This document shows positions 508-37,967 of a stretch of 45,950 nucleotides of DNA, piece by piece. The translations under genes were made by a program, and so were the position numbers. Each line of letters starts with the position of its first letter. The stretch's first letter is position 1. The stretch spans positions 1-45,950 of the forward strand of contig JAFGGO010000051.1 of assembly GCA_016930515.1 (NCBI GenBank). The letters are read 5' to 3'. The DNA comes from Promethearchaeota archaeon. GTDB taxonomy: Archaea > Asgardarchaeota > Lokiarchaeia > Sigyniarchaeales > SOKP01. The notes beneath the pieces were generated by a model. The model had not been told where the DNA came from. It did no database searches and was given only the letters and a program-made list of their open reading frames with translations.

Positions 508-3500
508 ATGAAAAGAAATTCAATTAAAAAAATCAAACCAAAAACTTTAGCTCTAGGTTCATTTTTAATACTTTTTTTATTCATGAATACTGTGATAATG
601 TTTTTTCCACCATCAGTGATGGCTAAACCATTCAAAGGTGTTTATGAAGGGAATTTAAATGAAGTGGAAGATAAAACCGATCAAATTAATCTCTATTCGC
701 AAAGAACAAGAACCCTTGAATTTGAAGTCTCAAGTGAAAATATCGATATTTCCGAACTGATCGCACCAAATGGGGAACTTTGCAATCGAATTACGCTAAA
801 AGATGCTAATGGTTTGGGTCAAGCAGGAAAACCTCAATTGCCCTATAAGACGCTACAAGTCTTGGTACCATTTGGATACGAATTAAAAGATATAGAATTC
901 GATCTGCGTCAATCGAATATTGAATTTTTACAGCATAAATTGGAAGCCTCAAGCCAAAAAATGATTTTGGGTTCTGATGAAACACCCGAATATAAGTTTG
1001 ACTCATATATTTATGGCTCTAATAATCTTTTTCCTGGCAATTATTACTCCGTTGAGGGTGTTTATGGCTTAAGAGGATATCAAATTCTTGTGCTCAATTT
1101 GTTTCCCGTCCAATACATTCCAAGCGAAAACAAGCTTTTGATTGTTAAAGACATGAGAGTAAAAATTAACTTAGAAAAAGATGTTAATTTGGTCGTGGAA
1201 GACAGTCTCTTGAGAGGTTTTAACAAGGACGAAGAAATGGTCTTATTGATGGTACAAAATCCCGAAGATATTACTTCTTATCGTAACATTCTCAGTTCAA
1301 CTCTTGATTTGCCTCCGGCGTCGTACGATTACGTGATTATCACGAACGACGCCTTGAAGAATTCTGGTGGCGCCTATACCTTCCAAGATCTTGCTGACTA
1401 TAAGAACTCAATCGGAATAAGTACCACGATCGTCACGGTTGAAGATATATATGCGAATTATTCAGGTGTCGATAACCAGGAAAAGATACGTAATTTCATT
1501 ATTGATGCCTATAACGAATGGGGGATCGAATATGTGCTTCTTGGAGGAGATGGAGACGGTACACCAGGAGGAGATTCAATCATTCCTACAAGAGGTTTTT
1601 ATGATGGACAAGTAGGCGATACTAATGTCCCATCAGACTTGTATTACGCAGCACTCGATGGGAATTGGAACGACGATGGTGATTCGTATTGGGGTGAAAT
1701 AGGCGAGGAAGATCTTTACGCTGAAGTCTATGTCGGACGAGCTCCCGTAGATTCTGAACAAGAATTATCTAATTTTATCATGAAGACGCTCGCTCACGAA
1801 ACGACCTCCGATGCATACTTATCCGAAGCACTCATGTTAGGAGAGTATTTAGGATCCCATTTTGGAATCCCCTGGGGAGGGGCTTCTAAGGACGAGGTTA
1901 AGGACGGCTCAACCAACAACGGATACGAAACAGTAGGATTTCCGCCAGAATACAACATGTCCACCTTATACGATCGCGATTTGGATCCCTATGAATGGGA
2001 CAGCTCGGACCTCATTCCCATTTTAAATAGCGGCGTTCACGTCATAAATCACCTGGGACACGCAAATGTCAATACCGTCATGAAAATGACCATAAGCGAA
2101 GTAGATTCTCTCGTGAACGATAAATACTTTTTTGTATATAGTCAAGGGTGCTATTGTGGGGCCTTCGACAATAGGAGCGATTATGGTTACTACTATGATT
2201 TTGATTGTATCGTTGAACATTTTGTGACATCAGAACACGGCGCTTTTGCGTTCGTTGCCAATAGCCGTTATGGTGTTGGCGATGCATATGGGACCAACGG
2301 TCCTTCTCAATTTTTTGATCGCCAATTCTTTGATGCTATTTTTAACGAATCGATCGTAGAAATTGGAAGGGCAAATCAAGACTCGAAACACGACACCATT
2401 CCCTTTTTAAGCCAAGATTATGTGCGGTTTTGCTATTATGAATTGAATCTATTTGGAGATCCTACCGCGAATTTACTACCACAACCAAACGAAATCGCTC
2501 CGATCCTTACCAGCGAATCGGTAGCGCCCAAAAAGGGTTATCAAGACACTCAAATTACCTTCAGAGTGAATTATACGGACTCTGATAATAATGCCCCTTC
2601 TAAAATCCATGTAATCATTAATGGGACCAAATATAATATGGAGAAACAAGATCAAAGTGATAAAAATTATACGGACGGTTGCATGTATCAACTCACGACT
2701 TATCTACAATCGGCGAGCAATAATTACTCCTATTTTTTCCAATGCAGTGATGGAAAATTTATGGTGTCCACAGCTGAATATGATGATATTGAGATTTTAT
2801 ATTCAAATGCGATGGCGCCATCTTTAAGTAATAGTCAACTTAATCCTCCTCAAGGATACACAAACGCAACAACCTTCGAATATGCTATAACCTATACTGA
2901 TCCAGACAACAACGCTCCCTCGAGCGTGAATGTCACCATTGATTCCTCAAGTACATTTGAGATGATAAAACAGGATCCTCTGGATGATAACTACATAGAC
3001 GGATGCCTTTATAGATATTCAACGACTTTTGAAAACGCTGGTATACACGATTACTCCTTCTCTTGTTCCGATGGTGTTTATTATTATCAAACAGGGACCG
3101 AAAGTGGACCGGATGTGGAAGTCTTGATTTTACCTTTCGATGGGATGTATATTAATTATATGTTTACTTTAAGGGGTAACGAGGTGCTCAGTAGGTTTGA
3201 ATATAGTTATCAAGACGATTCGACATTCCTAGTCAATTGGATGATATATGATCCAATGATTTCTGGATGGTATCTTTCCTCCTCTTACGAAATCGATGTA
3301 GAAACGAGATTGATGAAAGTTGTTTACGATGGTGGTATTAATTTTGGTAACTATCACACGCCTATGTGGATCTATCCAAATGTTCTCGTTGGAGATCTCG
3401 TCCCGATCGCAGTGGATGGGGAGGGAGATCACGACTTTCTTGTTTCTGAGGAAAAATCGGTATATATCCAACAATTTGGAGATGTTGATATCTTTGAACT

Positions 3501-5367
3501 CGTCGATCTTGACTTGCCTGGGGGAATTGCGTGGTATGAAAAGACCTCCGGAATTCTTTTAAACGGTTCCTATCCCTTTTATAGTGGTACTTACGAATAT
3601 TCCTTCAATCTATTAAGCACGAACGTGGATGTAGATGTATCAGGAGGAGATGATCCTATCGCTGATTTCATCGCCGTTCCAAACCCCGTTGTATTGGGCA
3701 ATTCCGTTCAATTCATGTTCTCGGGAAATCCTGGTCATGGAACAACAAGGTATACTTGGGACTTCGGCGACACTAGTCCTCTATCGTACGAGCAGAATCC
3801 AATACATATTTATGCTACCCTTGGAACTTACCAGGTAACGCTAAGCATATCCGACTCGAACGGTGGTTTTGATTCAGAGTATAAATACATTCTAGTAGAA
3901 GGAAATTTAATACCCTGTGCTGATTTCTACGCAAACACTACAGTAGTTAGCGTTGGAGAGCCAATCCAATTTACATTCAGCGGAAGCCCGGGAAACGAAC
4001 CCTGTTATTATGTGTGGATTTTTGATGATGGTGGACTTTCTCAAGAAAAAGATCCCGTGTATCAATTCACCACTCCAGGTACTTATAGTGTAGAAGTGTA
4101 TGTATCTGATGTAAATGGTGATTCGGATAATATGTACAAGTCAAACTATATAACAGTATACGCTGGTACCGCATCTCCCGAAGCGGAATTCGAGGCAAAC
4201 TCAACGACCGTTAGATCAGGAGAATATGTGCAATTTACTTTCACTGGAAGCGAAGGGGACGCTCCTGCGACATTTTTCTGGGACTTTGGCGATGGTCTGT
4301 GGTCTGATGAGAAAAATCCCGTGCATCAATATATGAGTATTGGTAGTTATACGGTTTCTTTAGAAGTATATGATTCGGACGGCGACTTGGCCTACGAGGA
4401 AAAGAATCCATATATCATAGTTTATACTGGTACCAGTTATCCCATGGCAGACTTTATTGTAAACACAACGACTATAAATCCAGGAGAATACGTGCAATTT
4501 ATTTTCACGGGAAGCGAGGGAGACGCTCCTGCGACATTCTTCTGGGACTTTGGCGATGGTGGATGGTCTGATGAGAAAAATCCCGTGCATCAATACACGA
4601 GTACTGGTAGTTATATGATTTATCTAGAAGTATATGATTCGGACAATGATTACAATTATAAGATAGAATATGATTTCATAAGGGTAGTTGAAGAAATCTT
4701 ACCCATAGCTGATTTCTATGCCAATACAACCACAATCGTTGAAGATGAATATGTGAGGTTCATATTCAATGGCACCATGGGAAACGCTCCGGCAAGCTAT
4801 ACTTGGGATTTTGGTGATGAAACACCAGTTATCGCAACATCATCTCCAATAATAGACCACACATACACTTCAACTGGAACTTACACAATAACCTTATTAA
4901 TCACTGATGCGGACCTTGATAATGATATTAAAATCAGAATTGACTATATTACGGTTCTTGAAGATCACTTTCCCCTAGCGGATTTTCATGCAAATTCAAC
5001 AATGATCAATCCTGGAGAATTCGTTCAATTCACCTTTAATGGAAGCGAGGGTGATGGTCCAGCAATTTACATGTGGAATTTTGGAGATGGAATTACGATC
5101 TCATACGAACAAAATCCCATCCACCAATACACCTCAGAGGGCGTTTACAATGTGACTTTAACGGTTATTGACTCAGATGGTGATTCTGATCAAGAAGTAA
5201 AATATTTCTATATGATCGTTATTAACGAAGATCGCGATATTACCGTTCCAAGATTCGACTTGATCACCGTTTCAGGATTCGACTTGATCATCGTTCTGGG
5301 CGCTACATCGCTCATTGGATTAATTCTCGTCGTTATAAGGAGAAAATATGGATTCGATTTTCAATAA
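508..5367 (+). CDS. C25 (gingipain-like) cysteine peptidase with propeptide, about 6 PKD domains and a C-terminal membrane anchor
   Basis: N-terminal hydrophobic signal and propeptide-like GKPQLPYKTLQVLVP. C25 motifs YDYVIIT, YVLLGGD, SDLYYA, VGRAP, with catalytic-type NHLGH and SQGC. Six W(D/N/I)F(G/D)D PKD repeats, then a TM helix followed by RRK. Confidence 0.9.
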   Translation: MKRNSIKKIKPKTLALGSFLILFLFMNTVIMFFPPSVMAKPFKGVYEGNLNEVEDKTDQINLYSQRTRTLEFEVSSENIDISELIAPNGELCNRITLKDANGLGQAGKPQLPYKTLQVLVPFGYELKDIEFDLRQSNIEFLQHKLEASSQKMILGSDETPEYKFDSYIYGSNNLFPGNYYSVEGVYGLRGYQILVLNLFPVQYIPSENKLLIVKDMRVKINLEKDVNLVVEDSLLRGFNKDEEMVLLMVQNPEDITSYRNILSSTLDLPPASYDYVIITNDALKNSGGAYTFQDLADYKNSIGISTTIVTVEDIYANYSGVDNQEKIRNFIIDAYNEWGIEYVLLGGDGDGTPGGDSIIPTRGFYDGQVGDTNVPSDLYYAALDGNWNDDGDSYWGEIGEEDLYAEVYVGRAPVDSEQELSNFIMKTLAHETTSDAYLSEALMLGEYLGSHFGIPWGGASKDEVKDGSTNNGYETVGFPPEYNMSTLYDRDLDPYEWDSSDLIPILNSGVHVINHLGHANVNTVMKMTISEVDSLVNDKYFFVYSQGCYCGAFDNRSDYGYYYDFDCIVEHFVTSEHGAFAFVANSRYGVGDAYGTNGPSQFFDRQFFDAIFNESIVEIGRANQDSKHDTIPFLSQDYVRFCYYELNLFGDPTANLLPQPNEIAPILTSESVAPKKGYQDTQITFRVNYTDSDNNAPSKIHVIINGTKYNMEKQDQSDKNYTDGCMYQLTTYLQSASNNYSYFFQCSDGKFMVSTAEYDDIEILYSNAMAPSLSNSQLNPPQGYTNATTFEYAITYTDPDNNAPSSVNVTIDSSSTFEMIKQDPLDDNYIDGCLYRYSTTFENAGIHDYSFSCSDGVYYYQTGTESGPDVEVLILPFDGMYINYMFTLRGNEVLSRFEYSYQDDSTFLVNWMIYDPMISGWYLSSSYEIDVETRLMKVVYDGGINFGNYHTPMWIYPNVLVGDLVPIAVDGEGDHDFLVSEEKSVYIQQFGDVDIFELVDLDLPGGIAWYEKTSGILLNGSYPFYSGTYEYSFNLLSTNVDVDVSGGDDPIADFIAVPNPVVLGNSVQFMFSGNPGHGTTRYTWDFGDTSPLSYEQNPIHIYATLGTYQVTLSISDSNGGFDSEYKYILVEGNLIPCADFYANTTVVSVGEPIQFTFSGSPGNEPCYYVWIFDDGGLSQEKDPVYQFTTPGTYSVEVYVSDVNGDSDNMYKSNYITVYAGTASPEAEFEANSTTVRSGEYVQFTFTGSEGDAPATFFWDFGDGLWSDEKNPVHQYMSIGSYTVSLEVYDSDGDLAYEEKNPYIIVYTGTSYPMADFIVNTTTINPGEYVQFIFTGSEGDAPATFFWDFGDGGWSDEKNPVHQYTSTGSYMIYLEVYDSDNDYNYKIEYDFIRVVEEILPIADFYANTTTIVEDEYVRFIFNGTMGNAPASYTWDFGDETPVIATSSPIIDHTYTSTGTYTITLLITDADLDNDIKIRIDYITVLEDHFPLADFHANSTMINPGEFVQFTFNGSEGDGPAIYMWNFGDGITISYEQNPIHQYTSEGVYNVTLTVIDSDGDSDQEVKYFYMIVINEDRDITVPRFDLITVSGFDLIIVLGATSLIGLILVVIRRKYGFDFQ
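4241..4644 (+). repeat. Near-identical intragenic duplication of PKD modules 3 and 4
   Basis: About 4241-4380 versus about 4505-4644, 264 bp apart. Both encode FTGSEGDAPATFFWDFGDG.WSDEKNPVHQY with few nucleotide differences. Confidence 0.85.
5242..5289 (+). repeat. 24-bp tandem duplication in the sorting-signal region (TVPRFDLI / TVSGFDLI)
   Basis: accgttccaagattcgacttgatc followed by accgtttcaggattcgacttgatc (22 of 24 positions identical). Confidence 0.9.
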
Positions 5368-6264: not shown

Positions 6265-7365
6265 TTAAAAAGGAACACCAATTAAATAAAGATATATTAT
6301 CGCTACAATACCGCAAGCGAGTGGATTTAAATAATTGTCACTTGCGCGTATTTTTGTGCTGGTTGCTATATCAACCAAGAATACTACTACCGAAAGAATA
6401 GTTCCAAGCGATAACAGGATTTCTAACGACCAAACGGATGGATTTGAAAATCCAAATGTGTTGGAGAAAAATCCCCCGAATAACGTGCATAGGAATGCAA
6501 AGAAAGAACCTCCAATATATCCCTCTATTGTTTTAGTACTACCCTTTGGAAATTCGTGGCTAAAACCTATTTTCTTTGCGATGATCCCAAATATCGAAGC
6601 CATGCCGTCCGCAACAGACGCTATTAACAAAATTATGAAAAACAAGGGAAAGTCGAATAGAAGGAAGGGTGCAAATCCAAACACCATTATAGATGTACTA
6701 GAAAATGTGTCAAGTTCGGTGGGTGTTAAACCCCTTGCATAGAGTTCTCCTACGATTCTTGGCATGTAGGAATAATCAAATAACCTAATAAGATCACCAA
6801 TAAGAAAAGTTAATGCAAAATCCATTCCGAATATAACGACAAAAAATAAAGCATAGTGTTTCCACCTACCTTGATAAGAATATACTGGGTTGTTATTTAG
6901 GATCCAAAAAACCATGACTATTCCGCTAACAACTGCGAGTGGAAGTAAGTGAGTGAACTTTCTTTTTACAGAAGGCTTGTATTGCAACTTTAAACGTTCA
7001 CAAAAAAGCTCGTAATTATTTACATTCTGTAACAATTCGGGATTTTTTATAGTTTTAATTTTTTGAGAGAGCGCCCATATTGACATTACAAACATTACGC
7101 TTAGAATACCTACCATTCCATTCAGAGCAAGTTCTAATGTTAGAGACGATCGGGCTATTCCGGTTAAATTATTACCAAATTTTAACACGTATAAATGATA
7201 TAATATTCCCAAAAGCGCGCAAAATAGTCCATTAACGATTTCATTCAATTTTTTATAAGGATCCTTGTTCTTTTGGACCCAAGTTCTTTTCACGTGAATA
7301 AAAATTGCCGCACTTAATGTAAAACACACGATTGTAACAGGAAGATTCAAGAGGAAGAGTATCAT
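6265..7365 (-). CDS. CTP-dependent lipid kinase, dolichol/phytol/DGK1-type (cytidylyltransferase superfamily), multi-TM
   Basis: Motifs RKFTHL, ADGMASIFG, KTIEG and a C-terminal DN. Many TM segments. Confidence 0.8.
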   Translation of the reverse strand: MILFLLNLPVTIVCFTLSAAIFIHVKRTWVQKNKDPYKKLNEIVNGLFCALLGILYHLYVLKFGNNLTGIARSSLTLELALNGMVGILSVMFVMSIWALSQKIKTIKNPELLQNVNNYELFCERLKLQYKPSVKRKFTHLLPLAVVSGIVMVFWILNNNPVYSYQGRWKHYALFFVVIFGMDFALTFLIGDLIRLFDYSYMPRIVGELYARGLTPTELDTFSSTSIMVFGFAPFLLFDFPLFFIILLIASVADGMASIFGIIAKKIGFSHEFPKGSTKTIEGYIGGSFFAFLCTLFGGFFSNTFGFSNPSVWSLEILLSLGTILSVVVFLVDIATSTKIRASDNYLNPLACGIVAIIYLYLIGVPF

Positions 7366-7469: not shown

Positions 7470-10307
7470 TTAAAGCGCTTCTGGCACGATAATGACAAAA
7501 TTAGCACCTTCCACGGTAAATTCACCGCTTAAACTTGTCATAATCTGGTCTATAAAGGTTAATCCCAACAAAGTCCCGCGTGGTCTTTCTTTCTCTTGTT
7601 CTCTATATACGCTTTCATATTGTAAAGTAGTATCTATAAATTCCATTTTCAGACATCTAACATCGTTCCTGTTTATCTTTGAAATGAGAATTTCTAGTCT
7701 GATGTTAGGATTCGTGTTATATTCAATGATGTTAATCAAGATATTATCGAACACGTCACTTAATATCTCGTTGGCCATTATAAAGAAATTTTTATTCTGA
7801 GGGTAAATGCTAGCAGTAATAGTTTTTTCTTTAAATCCTTGTTTGATGTGTCCTATAGATTCCTCCAAAAAAGAATTGAGAAAAAGTTTCTTGATGGGCA
7901 GTTTTGAATCCTCGAGCAATGCGAGTTTTCTAACGTTCGAAATTAATTTGGCTCCTGTAACTCCTTGATCTTTGATATTTTCTAACATGTCAATAAAATT
8001 TTTGTTTTTTTGTACGATTTTCGTTTCTTTATACGATTCTATTGAGGATTCAATTTTTTTGAATAAATTGTTTACATCTTGGGCGAATAATTCTTTGTAA
8101 AAATTTGCTCTATCGTAAAGCTTGTGGTATCGTTCTTGGCTTTCTCTTAGCATTTCTTCGGCAATTTTCTGCTTGGTCACATCGCTAATGATGATCTGTA
8201 CGAATTCTTCCCTGTTTATCATTACTTGAGAAGATTGAATGTTAGCGATGATGGTATTTTGGTTTTTTTTGGTTAAAATAGCGTCCAAAACCGTTATAGA
8301 TTCTCCTTCTCCTTTTTTAAGGTTCTTTAGGTCTTCAAGTAGTTTTAGTAAAAAATTGGGGCGTATTATGTTTAATCTATCAAACCTTTTATCAAGGAGC
8401 TCTTCTCTTCGATAATCGAGTAATGATTCTACCGCCGGGTTTACGTCGACTACTATTCCCTTGGAATCGATGAGTATGATTGAAAATGGCGTGTTCTTAA
8501 ATAAGTGACGATATTTATTTTCGGAATTCTTTAACTTGAGTTCGGACAACTTGCGTTCAGTGATATCCCTTATGATACATTGAATGATGTTTTGACCACC
8601 CATTTGAATTTCACTGGCATTAATTTCCACGGGAATTGATTTATCTCCAAATATTTTTATTTTCAATTCTATTGGAACTGCATCTTCTGATTCAAGCTGG
8701 GTAAGAATTTTTTGTTTAAAACCTTCTCTTTGGTTTTCGAGCTGCAATTGAGTGAGGTGCATGCCTACAATGTCTTCGAGTGGTCTCTGTACAATTTTTT
8801 CTGCTTGCTGGTTTGCATCAACAATGATTCCTGATTTGCGATCAATGATGAGTATGGCGTCTCGAGCGCTCATGAATAGTGATTGGTATCGCATTTCCGC
8901 AATTCTCAAGGCCTTAACCGTTGGTTCTAATGAAATTAATTTCTTTAATATTTCGTCGTAAATCGTTTTTAGCTCTTCGTTTATATGCTTTTCATCTAAA
9001 TAATTCGCTTTTAAGCTCGTGAATTTTTCGAATACTAATGTTGTGTATTGGTCGATAATTGCTCGTGGAATTCTCTCGTGGAAGAATATTACTAAAGATA
9101 ATGGAAGCAATCCTCCTCTTATGTTCTGATCTTCTATTACATCAAAATAAATCGCTGCCTTCGCTTTTAAATGCGTGAATGGTAGGATTACCGAAATTCT
9201 CTTGAAATATTCCCCACCGAATAAGAATTGGGAGATGGAAAAACAACGCGTTGCAACTAGTTCTGGATTATCTATTGCTCCGCCTGGATATGTGGATACG
9301 ATCAATGGTCCTTTATTCTCATCCCAATACGAAAAAATGAGTCCTAATTCTGATTTTGGTGCGGGATGTAATTTCTCGTTAAGCCGTTCAGAAAGCCAGT
9401 AGAATCCTTTTTCCACGTTCTCGTTTTTTAGAGCACAGGTGGAAAAATACTCTATTGACCTATTGAATTCGCCGTTTAATTCAAGTGTATTTTTTATTTC
9501 TTCTAAATTAGGATTAAGAAGATCTTTTTTATTCAAAAGGATGAGTAGTGGTAAATTCTTCATTTCATTTAAGTTTAAGATATCGTGAAGCACTTCTCCA
9601 GCAGCGCGATATTGTTTTTTATCTGCCACATCCAACACGAAGACAAGACCATCTTGGTTTTTTAAATAGGGTGCCCATAATTCCTTGAATTTCGATTGAC
9701 CCGGAGTGTCGTGAGCGTACATGGTGATATTATTAATTATTACTTTTGAAATATCAATATATGTGGTTGGAATTGTGTTTTTAGACATTGAGTTTCTCAA
9801 GCAATTTATTACGGTTGTTTTTCCTGCTTGAGACAACCCAAATACTAAGATTTTTGCGTTGGTTTGCTCGTATACAATACTCTCTTTTGGAAATGTATTG
9901 TAAAAAGTGGAAAACAAACTTTTTATCTCTTCTAATTTTTCTTGAGAGTGAGCGTATTCCTCGTTATCCTCATAAAATGCTTCAAATGCATCTTCAATCG
10001 TTTGGAACTCGCTTTCGAATCCTTCTAATAATTCCTTTGACAACTCAAAATTAATATGGCTGTTTATATCCACGACAAAAGATATGAGGAGCGTTTCGAC
10101 CTGTCCTCGACTGTGTTTGCTAGGGATGTTAAATATGCAATTTGCACTTTTATAACTACCAAAAATATGAATGAAAAATCCTTCATCGTAAAGATCCATT
10201 AATGCCGGTATTTGATCGAATTCTTGATCATTAATATCTCTAGGGGCTTTTAAATAGATTTTTGGCCCCATTTTTGGATCAAACCTGCTTAGAATTAAAA
10301 CTTTCAT
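7470..10307 (-). CDS. Fusion protein: longin/uDENN-like, Arf-like GTPase, longin/uDENN-like, 2x PAS, degenerate HisKA/HATPase
   Basis: GTPase boxes G1 GLSQAGKT, G2 PT, G3 DTPGQ, G4 NKKD, G5 TCAL. Two F/W-D-x3-GP...RG domains. PAS domains ending RDITERK and SDVTKQK. H-box FAQDVNN lacks His, N-box VFDNILIN, G2-like GTLLGL. Confidence 0.85.
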   Translation of the reverse strand: MKVLILSRFDPKMGPKIYLKAPRDINDQEFDQIPALMDLYDEGFFIHIFGSYKSANCIFNIPSKHSRGQVETLLISFVVDINSHINFELSKELLEGFESEFQTIEDAFEAFYEDNEEYAHSQEKLEEIKSLFSTFYNTFPKESIVYEQTNAKILVFGLSQAGKTTVINCLRNSMSKNTIPTTYIDISKVIINNITMYAHDTPGQSKFKELWAPYLKNQDGLVFVLDVADKKQYRAAGEVLHDILNLNEMKNLPLLILLNKKDLLNPNLEEIKNTLELNGEFNRSIEYFSTCALKNENVEKGFYWLSERLNEKLHPAPKSELGLIFSYWDENKGPLIVSTYPGGAIDNPELVATRCFSISQFLFGGEYFKRISVILPFTHLKAKAAIYFDVIEDQNIRGGLLPLSLVIFFHERIPRAIIDQYTTLVFEKFTSLKANYLDEKHINEELKTIYDEILKKLISLEPTVKALRIAEMRYQSLFMSARDAILIIDRKSGIIVDANQQAEKIVQRPLEDIVGMHLTQLQLENQREGFKQKILTQLESEDAVPIELKIKIFGDKSIPVEINASEIQMGGQNIIQCIIRDITERKLSELKLKNSENKYRHLFKNTPFSIILIDSKGIVVDVNPAVESLLDYRREELLDKRFDRLNIIRPNFLLKLLEDLKNLKKGEGESITVLDAILTKKNQNTIIANIQSSQVMINREEFVQIIISDVTKQKIAEEMLRESQERYHKLYDRANFYKELFAQDVNNLFKKIESSIESYKETKIVQKNKNFIDMLENIKDQGVTGAKLISNVRKLALLEDSKLPIKKLFLNSFLEESIGHIKQGFKEKTITASIYPQNKNFFIMANEILSDVFDNILINIIEYNTNPNIRLEILISKINRNDVRCLKMEFIDTTLQYESVYREQEKERPRGTLLGLTFIDQIMTSLSGEFTVEGANFVIIVPEAL

Positions 10308-36545: not shown

Positions 36546-36953
36546 TTTTTTCTATAACAAATTTAAATTAATATAACATTAGCTAAGGGATGAACCGATA
36601 TCCCCCTTATATTAATTCCACTCGTTTACTTGCTTTACGACTTCGCCCAATTTACACAAATTTCTTATTAAATATCAAGGCGTTATTTTGATTAGTATGC
36701 AGAATTATCCTCATTGTAAATGGAGACTTTAGTTTAGTAGAAAATAGAAATATGATAAATCGATCATAAAATCTTAGCGGTTTTGAAGTTTTTATAATAA
36801 CCCAACAGAGTATAAAAATATCTCTGAAGAATCCCTAGGAAGAGAATTTCGTGGGGATCACTCGAGGGCGAAAATTTCTTACAAATAGAACCGGCTAGGT
36901 TTGATATAAATTTCATAACACTATTATTATAATTGAAGGAGCACGATCTAACA

Positions 36954-37967
36954 ATGAAAGAGAAATTCTTGGTCATTTCCTATTTTGACATGAAAATAGG
37001 ACCTAACACCCTGTACACTCGATCCGACATTAGTACTATTTACGGATTTCCCGATTTATCGAAAATCTTGGATTTTAGCAACAAGGACGGCACTTTTTTG
37101 TTTTCCTTTCGCAAGTTCCAAACAATCAACACCGTTTTTAACATGCGCTCTGACATTGCCCGGGGGGGAACTGACTTGCTCATGATTTCTTGCATCGTCC
37201 GAGCGTCGTATTTTAAGAACGAGCTCACCGACATATTTAAATACTTGGAATCGAAAAAGGTTTACTTGGATAAGTTCGCCTCCGAGCTAAAAGCACTTCC
37301 CAATTTTAACTCGATCTTGTACAAATACAAACAAAATCCGTCAGTTGCGCAATTCACGCGGTATTGCAAGGAAGAGAATGTGAATTTTTTTTCGGTCTAC
37401 GATCGATACCACGATCTCATCTTTCCCGAATCCGAGATCAAGCTCATAACGCAAGACATCAACCTTAAAAAAAAGATCTTCCTCATAGGTCCAAAAGGTT
37501 CCGGCAAGGACACCTATTTGCGAAACATTGAAACCCTCCAATTTTTTAGCGAAAATAATTTAGACATTCCCACGCGTATCATGGGGATAATGCTTGACAA
37601 CATCGTCGCCTCTGACGCAATCGATTTTTTTAAAGGCAAGACGAGACTCGATAAGGCTCAAGCCGTGATATTCATTGTTAAAGACACAGACGGGAAAACT
37701 TCCATCGTTGTCAAGTCGTTTATAGAGAAATTCATGTCTTCCTATTCTGGCCAGCTCTTCGGCAAAATTCCTCTCCTGATCATTAACAACGAGGTTGAAG
37801 GCATGGGCAAGGCGCCCTTGCGGGAGGAAGAAATCAAAGAGATTTTCAGGAAACAAGAATTCAATGAGCAAGAAATTCCCTTTAAATACTATTCACTAAA
37901 TGTGATCAAAGAAGATCCACTATTATTAGAGCCATTAAAATGGATCATCAAGGAGATTTTTACTTAG
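36954..37967 (+). CDS. Longin/uDENN-like domain fused to a degenerate small-GTPase domain
   Basis: ISYFDMKIGP...SDIARGG..LLMISC is homologous to the N-terminus of 7470-10307. P-loop GPKGSGKD, no DxxG, G4 reads NNE. SD-like AAGGAG precedes ATG 36954. Confidence 0.75.
   Translation: MKEKFLVISYFDMKIGPNTLYTRSDISTIYGFPDLSKILDFSNKDGTFLFSFRKFQTINTVFNMRSDIARGGTDLLMISCIVRASYFKNELTDIFKYLESKKVYLDKFASELKALPNFNSILYKYKQNPSVAQFTRYCKEENVNFFSVYDRYHDLIFPESEIKLITQDINLKKKIFLIGPKGSGKDTYLRNIETLQFFSENNLDIPTRIMGIMLDNIVASDAIDFFKGKTRLDKAQAVIFIVKDTDGKTSIVVKSFIEKFMSSYSGQLFGKIPLLIINNEVEGMGKAPLREEEIKEIFRKQEFNEQEIPFKYYSLNVIKEDPLLLEPLKWIIKEIFT

Follow-up and report, generated by a model that had tools for sequence, protein, structure and literature searches.

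The window considered here is the whole 45,950-nucleotide stretch (positions 1-45,950) of contig JAFGGO010000051.1, assembly GCA_016930515.1, from a Promethearchaeota archaeon (Lokiarchaeia; Sigyniarchaeales; SOKP01). Positions 7470-10307 of the minus strand form a single, unbroken, ATG-started open reading frame of 945 amino acids, in which an Arf-family GTPase is placed between two longin-type domains and is followed by two PAS domains and a degenerate histidine kinase module. A preliminary description of this DNA gave the same coordinates without naming the strand, and read the product as a one-chain signalling switch in which a sensor kinase that had lost phosphotransfer controls a GTPase and its GTPase-activating protein (GAP). 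The sequence strings and residue numbers quoted there are all exact: LSRFDPKMGP (G14-P15), SKHSRG (R67), FSYWDENKGP (W328-D329, G333-P334), DQNIRGG (R397) and LFAQD (Q743). The features of the gene are as follows.

7470-10307 (minus strand): whole gene, 945 amino acids, longin - Arf GTPase - longin - PAS - PAS - degenerate DHp/CA
9888-10307 (minus strand): N-terminal longin-like domain, amino acids 1-140, from tri-domain model topology and hhalign
10263-10268 (minus strand): G14-P15, the GP motif at the beta1-beta2 hairpin
10107-10109 (minus strand): codon of R67, candidate arginine finger in the beta4-beta5 loop, (A/S)-R-G motif
9372-9869 (minus strand): Arf-family GTPase domain, amino acids 147-312, G1-G5 intact, from Pfam, Foldseek and VIA-align
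9696-9698 (minus strand): codon of Q204, the catalytic switch-II glutamine (DTPGQ)
8928-9356 (minus strand): middle longin domain, amino acids 318-460, from AF2, Foldseek and VIA-align
9321-9326 (minus strand): W328-D329, within W-D-x3-G-P
9117-9119 (minus strand): codon of R397 (I-R-G-G), beta4-beta5 loop of the middle longin
8538-8900 (minus strand): PAS domain 1, amino acids 470-590, from Pfam
8148-8525 (minus strand): PAS domain 2, amino acids 595-720, from Pfam and NCBIfam
7803-8147 (minus strand): DHp-like helical region, amino acids 721-835, with the codons of Q743 (8079-8081) and H728 (8124-8126)
7473-7802 (minus strand): degenerate CA (HATPase_c-like) domain, amino acids 836-945

The central domain belongs to the Arf family. 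The Pfam Arf model matches amino acids 147-308 with an E value of 3.6e-36 and 124.7 bits (cut-off 22.3), and the G boxes are all present: GLSQAGKT at 157-164, T181, DTPGQ at 200-204, NKKD at 259-262 and TCA at 290-292. When a model of the three N-terminal domains (the tri-domain model) was searched with Foldseek, Arl3, Arf1, Arf6 and HodArfR1 were found at E ~1e-14. By VIA-align, the top match of the GTPase is Arf6 (Z 22.9, root-mean-square deviation (rmsd) 2.2, 157 residues aligned, 32% identity), followed by Arf1 (Z 22.0), Sar1 (21.5) and the Asgard HodArfR1 (20.2), with Arl13B also near; Rab and Rho structures (Z ~18) and a Loki RagA-like protein (Z 17.7) stand behind the Arf-type structures. 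The earlier claim of an intact Arf-like G1-G5 set is thus well founded. The N-terminal amphipathic (myristoylated) helix of Arf proteins is absent because the G domain is internal, beginning at about amino acid 147 after a longin domain and a short linker.

The middle domain was modelled with AF2 from a 56-sequence alignment (amino acids 313-465), with a predicted local distance difference score (pLDDT) of 86.8 and a predicted template modelling score (pTM) of 0.85. The order of its elements, beta-beta-alpha-beta-beta-beta-alpha-alpha, is that of the longin fold. The best Foldseek match in the PDB is a 363-residue chain of GATOR1, 9v0j_A (E 4.7e-6), whose length suggests NPRL2; further matches include a Lokiarchaeal longin (8yqg), Lst4, DENND1B and FLCN. 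In the VIA-align ranking, 8yqg_B from that Lokiarchaeal longin comes first (Z 16.1, rmsd 2.4, 134 residues aligned), and the longin call of the preliminary description holds, with Z values of 11-13 to Lst4 (12.9), FLCN (11.7), the C9orf72-SMCR8 chain 7o2w_A (11.2) and the GATOR1 chains NPRL2/3 (~11). SNARE longins (9-10), TRAPP (~9) and roadblocks (~8) score lower. From its predicted structure, the domain can confidently be placed in the longin class of FLCN, Lst4, NPRL2 and C9orf72-SMCR8.

The middle domain also carries the motifs W328-D329-x3-G333-P334 and I-R-G-G. Among the 56 relatives, W328 is found in 55, D329 in 53, G333 in all 56 and R397 in 55, and P334 is kept in just four. The W-D-x3-G-P spacing equals that of W33-D34...G38-P39 in C9orf72.

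For the N-terminal domain, no Pfam family matches amino acids 1-140, nor is there one for amino acids 318-460, and the NPR2 and Folliculin models of Pfam stay below threshold for the 945-amino-acid protein. Applied to all members of both domain alignments, Pfam gives traces only (Folliculin, E 0.094 in two members; Afi1, E 0.0086 in one), and a Folliculin match of E 7e-4 occurs on the N-terminal domain of one relative. A language-model lead from the ESM-Atlas is weak, with scores of 0.84-0.86 and one cluster having NPR2 on 19% of its members, and a profile built on heterogeneous full-length relatives was swamped by Arf matches. The homology between the two flanking domains, claimed earlier from their motifs, is invisible to plain BLASTP (E 0.4) and is detected by profiles: hhalign gives E 7e-4, and with a more diverse profile an 82% probability at E 1e-5 over 103 columns, while reciprocal hmmsearch gives E ~1e-5. 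All these alignments pair G14-P15 with G333-P334 and R67 with R397. In the three-domain model (pLDDT 81.9) the N-terminal domain has the topology beta-beta-(short alpha)-beta-beta-beta-alpha-alpha, the same order as the middle longin; in the models both R67 and R397 lie within the beta4-beta5 loop, and both GP motifs are at the start of beta2. Profile homology and model topology together point to an N-terminal longin homologous to the middle domain.

A GP motif has been reported to be specific to GAP-type longins (FLCN, NPRL2, SMCR8, C9orf72), where it is a spatial neighbour of the arginine finger (PMC12290439). It is present in both flanking domains, as G14-P15 and G333-P334, and P15 occurs in 69 of 69 sequences. 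The combination of GP with (A/S)-R-G in the N-terminal domain is like that of SMCR8, FLCN and NPRL2. By their place in the beta4-beta5 loop and their conservation, R67 and R397 are candidate counterparts of the finger arginines FLCN R164, NPRL2 R78 and SMCR8 R147.

The PAS-PAS call of the preliminary description is likewise sound. Pfam places the two domains at ~473-584 and 597-~720, both above threshold (PAS_9 with 84.7 bits, PAS with 73.4 bits), TIGR00229 matches with E 1e-32, and NCBIfam concurs with Pfam on the PAS and small-GTPase parts. The maximum 19-residue hydropathy is 1.33, which reveals no hydrophobic segment, and the 945-amino-acid protein is therefore considered soluble.

The C-terminal module has the form of a histidine kinase core that has lost its catalytic residues. 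Q743 occupies the phospho-acceptor position where relatives have His (LFAHD). The HATPase_c match at amino acids 849-943 scores 14.5 bits and misses the cut-off of 26.4; the N-box retains Asn855, G1 has gone (FIDTTLQY, compared with DNGIGI in active relatives) and G2 is degenerate (RGTLLGL). Neither the phospho-acceptor nor the set of ATP-binding boxes of a sensor histidine kinase is therefore in place, and the dead kinase described earlier from Q743 and a missing DxGxG G1 box has also lost a proper G2. The equivalent DHp region of one relative matches Pfam HisKA with E 9e-4. G1 (DNGIGI), the F-box and a near-canonical G2 are found only in a group of ~830-amino-acid relatives and a few members of 950-970 amino acids, with HATPase_c E values of 1e-14 to 1e-16; the family thus probably descends from a working kinase, and the majority of its members are pseudokinases.

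The preliminary description had held that a normal H-box in orthologues would mark this copy as merely decayed. Such orthologues exist, but the picture is not a clean one. Among 24 close orthologues position 743 is His in 11, Gln in seven, Asn in five and Tyr in one; of 148 distinct family members, 95 have Asn there, only 26 have His and 16 have Gln. Q743 is also found in the nearest kin of the protein and is common to a whole clade, down to 56% identity, and the surrounding NFYKELF motif is invariant. Relative to the closest relative, the DHp region is 84% and the CA domain 77% identical, compared with 82-95% for the other domains. Per-domain dN/dS is saturated at synonymous sites, and only the contrast between the proportions of nonsynonymous and synonymous differences is therefore usable: pN is 0.17-0.30, with pS saturated at 0.7-0.99. 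Judged from this contrast, the C-terminal domains are under purifying selection and not decaying.

A second histidine in this region, His728, lies 15 residues upstream of the canonical H-box site in the motif S-E-x-x-[YF]-H-x-x-[YF]-D-R, which resembles a PAS N-cap or an S-helix. It is His in 145 of the 148 members. The exceptions are Lys in L042 and P0111, which are identical in this segment and of the ~834-amino-acid type with a canonical His and G1/G2, and Arg in P0059.

Conservation of the two candidate fingers was followed across a wide set of relatives. R67 is invariant in 24 orthologues. Searched against 1.84 billion proteins, the N-terminal domain profile matches 509 cluster representatives at E <= 1e-3, and over 126 diverse representatives G14, R67 and G68 are each at least 90% conserved. 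An Arf-family domain is present in 42 of these 126, a PAS domain in 36 and HATPase_c in eight; fusion of this longin with an Arf-like GTPase is therefore a recurrent theme.

Both arginines were compared with the catalytic glutamine in 178 longin-GTPase fusions, 99 with Gln204 and 62 with Lys204, the state of most 1123-amino-acid paralogues. R67 is present in 96 of the 99 Gln204-bearing fusions and in 14 of the 62 Lys204-bearing ones. Changes at position 67 number three in the Gln204 set, whose mean identity is 46%, as against 18 in the Lys204 set, whose mean identity is 69%. The constraint on R67 thus appears to collapse where Gln-dependent hydrolysis is lost, as expected of a catalytic partner. 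R397 is invariant in the Gln204 and Lys204 sets alike, the 55 of 56 given above including the Lys204 clade. Its persistence without the catalytic Gln means that its role is independent of hydrolysis. The two arginines, which the preliminary description treated as equivalent fingers, are indeed aligned and conserved but behave differently, R67 tracking Gln204 and R397 being conserved regardless. The window protein, with Gln204, R67 and GP, is in the "competent" state.

Most of the longer (1123-amino-acid) paralogues, a group that includes loci L016-L054, have DIPGK in place of DTPGQ in switch II and Asn at the kinase His position. Such proteins may represent versions of the module that are locked with GTP.

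Among 5.8 billion proteins searched, 177 full-length relatives were found, all from Asgard metagenome-assembled genomes, and the open reading frame is therefore not due to chance. A group of ~945 amino acids has the architecture of the window protein, a group of ~1103-1126 amino acids has an extra GAF domain ahead of the kinase module, and the ~830-amino-acid group has a single PAS domain with a well-preserved kinase. A few relatives are without a kinase, e.g., P0119, which is longin-Arf-longin followed by three PAS domains. In 400 genomes from the phylum, all three N-terminal domains occur together essentially in the organism's own GTDB family alone, plus one genome of a neighbouring family; elsewhere in the same order and class, genomes encode only longin-GTPase proteins of ~320 amino acids. 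The survey of Asgard genomes proposed in the preliminary description thus places the full architecture mainly in one GTDB family, and it is not pan-Asgard.

The same genome has a second longin-Arf-longin paralogue at contig C40:17461-18840 (plus strand), with 48% identity over amino acids 1-453 and an open frame of 652 amino acids, shorter than the 1123-amino-acid paralogues; several related genomes have both 945- and 1123-amino-acid versions. The genome also encodes many other PAS-kinases. Within the window, positions 36933-37967 (plus strand) encode a 344-amino-acid protein of the same longin family (BLASTP E 6e-9 to amino acids 2-172) that keeps FDMKIGP and SDIARGG. Its longin is followed by a degenerate P-loop (GPKGSGKDT) with no Pfam GTPase match, which suggests a fusion of longin and pseudo-GTPase.

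No receiver-domain gene or obvious partner was found among the neighbours of the 945-amino-acid gene. These comprise a surface protein with C25 peptidase and PKD domains, a membrane protein that is probably dolichol-kinase-like (a lead only), flavin reductases and others, and synteny is limited to close relatives. The gene directly downstream (6265-7365, minus strand) encodes 366 amino acids with no Pfam match and is syntenic in close relatives only; in a language-model search it adjoins Asgard dolichol kinase/CTP_transf_1 clusters (score 0.95, the family being on ~21% of members), which serves as a lead only. Positions 508-5367 (plus strand) encode a 1619-amino-acid protein with a C25 (gingipain-type) peptidase domain, a propeptide and six PKD repeats, which from this domain content is probably a secreted or surface protease.

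As the best-supported reading, it is proposed that the 945-amino-acid protein is an Arf-like switch with a built-in longin-pair GAP, tuned by its PAS domains and retaining a pseudokinase as a dimerization or scaffold element; the proposal is about as likely to be right as wrong. The protein would be cytoplasmic and probably dimeric, with a self-contained GTP switch at its core. The two longins would act jointly on the fused Arf GTPase, in the manner of SMCR8-C9orf72 with ARF1 or of NPRL2-NPRL3 with RagA. The N-terminal longin, with GP and R67, would be the catalytic part, like SMCR8, FLCN or NPRL2, and would supply the arginine finger for Gln204-dependent hydrolysis; the middle longin, with W328-D329, G333 and R397, would be the holding part, like C9orf72. 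The two PAS domains might sense some cue and bias the built-in GAP/GTPase cycle. The C-terminal histidine kinase, without phosphotransfer (His to Gln, G1 gone, G2 degenerate), would persist for dimerization or as a scaffold. A more specific proposal is that the fused Arf receives a genuine arginine finger in R67, from its own chain or from the other chain of a homodimer, that the middle longin with its WD pair holds the GTPase, and that signals sensed by the PAS domains set the rate of hydrolysis; this is more tentative and somewhat doubtful. In the one-chain switch of the preliminary description, the domain identities and the loss of the kinase's catalytic residues stand, whereas the catalytic finger, the pairing in cis and the direction of control from sensor to GTPase are matters of inference.

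Several points weigh against the proposed GAP. GAP catalysis, longin pairing, engagement in cis or in trans within a dimer, the direction of signalling and the output partner are all things that we infer. Fold searches of the tri-domain model return matches through the GTPase and the middle longin only and none via the N-terminal domain, the fold of which is therefore argued from homology and topology. With phmmer and profile hmmsearch, neither flanking domain gives a meaningful match among PDB sequences, and the link to FLCN/NPRL2 is beyond the reach of such searches. The tri-domain AF2 model has a pTM of 0.48, a geometry too unreliable to put either arginine near the nucleotide, and the linkers between longins and GTPase are short, at only ~6-8 residues, which may keep the switch face from the protein's own longins, such that engagement might be in trans or absent. 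The R67 relaxation signal stems essentially from one clade, and an independent-pairs test of R67 against Gln204 on the tree was not significant, with few informative pairs; what is claimed is therefore a difference in substitution counts and not co-evolution. As R397 is kept without Gln, at least one of the two "fingers" serves something other than catalysis. Finally, the exchange factor (GEF)-type Fuzzy/Inturned structure 7q3d_B overlaps with the GAP-type longins in its match to the middle domain (Z 11.1), and fold alone therefore cannot split GAP from GEF longins.

In a first alternative, the flanking longins are not a GAP at all. They would be a platform, GEF-like, or an effector-like reader of nucleotide state (cf. 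TRAPP, Mon1-Ccz1, DENN, Ragulator, CPLANE), and the arginines would be structural or binding residues. Along with Fuzzy/Inturned, DENND1 matches the middle domain (Z 8.2-8.6), R397 persists even beside Lys in place of the catalytic Gln, and longin and roadblock dimers are mostly GEFs (PMC10933270). The GP motif, however, is reported to be absent from DENND, TRAPP and adaptin longins (PMC12290439), R67 is conserved chiefly where the catalytic Gln is present, and the WD motif matches the pair needed for the GAP activity of C9orf72 (PMC8213707). With these three features set against it, a non-GAP role is considered unlikely.

A second alternative reverses the direction of signalling, the longin-Arf-longin module being an input that reports GTP/GDP state or a partner to the PAS-kinase chassis. 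The pseudokinase would still signal, e.g., as a heterodimer with a competent paralogue or by response-regulator binding of the DivL type. The module is N-terminal to DHp, the usual place of a sensor domain, and the ~830-amino-acid relatives, P0018 and P0020 keep His, DNGIGI and a strong HATPase_c. Moreover, the C-terminal domains are under selection, and the genome has the other PAS-kinases and the second longin-Arf-longin paralogue. Yet 122 of the 148 members are without the His and most are without G1, some members are entirely without the kinase module and no receiver-domain gene lies nearby; an input role is held to be improbable. Decay of a once normal sensor kinase gene, with the odd residues as neutral damage, might be argued from the H-box variation of the closest relatives (Q, H, N, Y) and from DHp and CA being the least conserved parts, but it is rejected on the intact reading frame, the clade-wide Q743, the invariant NFYKELF motif and the low pN against saturated pS.

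Returning to the proposed longin-pair GAP, its interest lies in the GTPase that such longins serve. The longin-pair GAPs of GATOR1, folliculin and C9orf72-SMCR8 govern mTORC1 and lysosomal traffic. GP and the arginine are conserved in stand-alone Asgard longins, and a 2025 survey asks whether their partner is ArfR/Arf-like or Rag(-like) (PMC12290439). A conserved fusion of two longins with an Arf domain acts as a "Rosetta stone" for this question, suggesting an Arf-like partner. If R67 is the finger, the protein would unite in one natural chain what eukaryotes assemble as longin-pair GAP:GTPase complexes. Asgard archaea would then already have had the GAP mechanism of FLCN, GATOR1 and C9orf72, with a client from the Arf family, and the question of which GTPase the GP-motif longins serve would be answered. 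A compact, soluble construct of ~465 amino acids would open the arginine-finger mechanism to point mutation without multi-subunit reconstitution, and the protein could thereby bear on whether this off-switch is older than eukaryotes. The gradient from working kinase to pseudokinase in one family would also illustrate a way for a two-component sensor to be coupled to a GTPase output instead.

The architecture is known in outline. NPRL2-like longin fusions with two-component domains in Asgard are noted in the text of Liu et al. (2020, bioRxiv 10.1101/2020.10.19.343400), GTPases fused to longin or roadblock domains are described in MK-D1 by Tran et al. (PMC10933270), and related longins were surveyed in 2025 (PMC12290439). 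The value of the present observations is tempered by that outline in Liu et al. and by GAP function being a prediction. A double-longin clamp round an Arf, a coupling of R67 to Gln204 and a family-wide pseudokinase are not described in the text of these three sources, Figure 5c of Liu et al. aside. Added here are the contrast in R67 constraint between Gln204 and Lys204 proteins, the distinction between R67 and R397, the count of the C9orf72-like WD motif, the kinase-to-pseudokinase gradient with its evidence of selection, and the narrow taxonomic range.

Among known systems, C9orf72-SMCR8(-WDR41) (7mge, 7o2w, 6lt0; PMC8213707) offers a likeness in having two longins and an Arf-family GTPase. 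In that complex ARF1 sits on both longins, SMCR8 Arg147 points to BeF3, and the C9orf72 change W33G/D34K kills GAP activity (PMC8213707). In each, one longin has GP and a loop arginine (R147 in SMCR8, R67 in the window protein) and the other has W-D-x3-G-P (W33-D34 and G38-P39 in C9orf72, W328-D329 and G333-P334 in the window protein); the structural match has a Z of 11.2 and an rmsd of 3.2 over 140 residues. The window protein differs in being one polypeptide with very short linkers, without DENN domains or WDR41, in having an invariant R397 in its C9orf72-like longin, and in that its GAP activity is a predicted one; outside the motifs no sequence similarity is detectable. In FLCN, SMCR8 and C9orf72 a DENN domain follows the longin. 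Here the longins are followed by Arf or PAS and there is no Pfam DENN match; the protein is therefore not a member of those families and shares the longin class only.

GATOR1 (NPRL2-NPRL3) and FLCN-FNIP2/Lst7-Lst4 (9v0j, 7t3b, 8dhb, 6nzd, 4zy8) are longin GAPs for Rag that share the GP motif and the arginine loop. In the window protein the presumed client is Arf-like instead of Rag, the parts are fused in cis, and both a DENN domain and the C-terminal domain of NPRL2 are missing.

The kinase half of the protein has likenesses of a different kind. DivL is a pseudo-histidine kinase of Caulobacter, and Roco and LRRK2 are GTPase-kinase fusions. Like DivL, the window protein has a kinase chassis that lacks the phospho-acceptor His and that selection has preserved, presumably as a scaffold or sensor; as in Roco/LRRK2, a small GTPase and a kinase-type module share one chain. 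The window protein differs from these in having another GTPase family and other regulators, in that the ATP-lid motifs are also lost, and in lacking a COR domain. The Asgard NPRL2-like and FLCN/SMCR8-type longins and their fusions (8yqg; PMC12290439, PMC10933270) are of the same class as the window protein.

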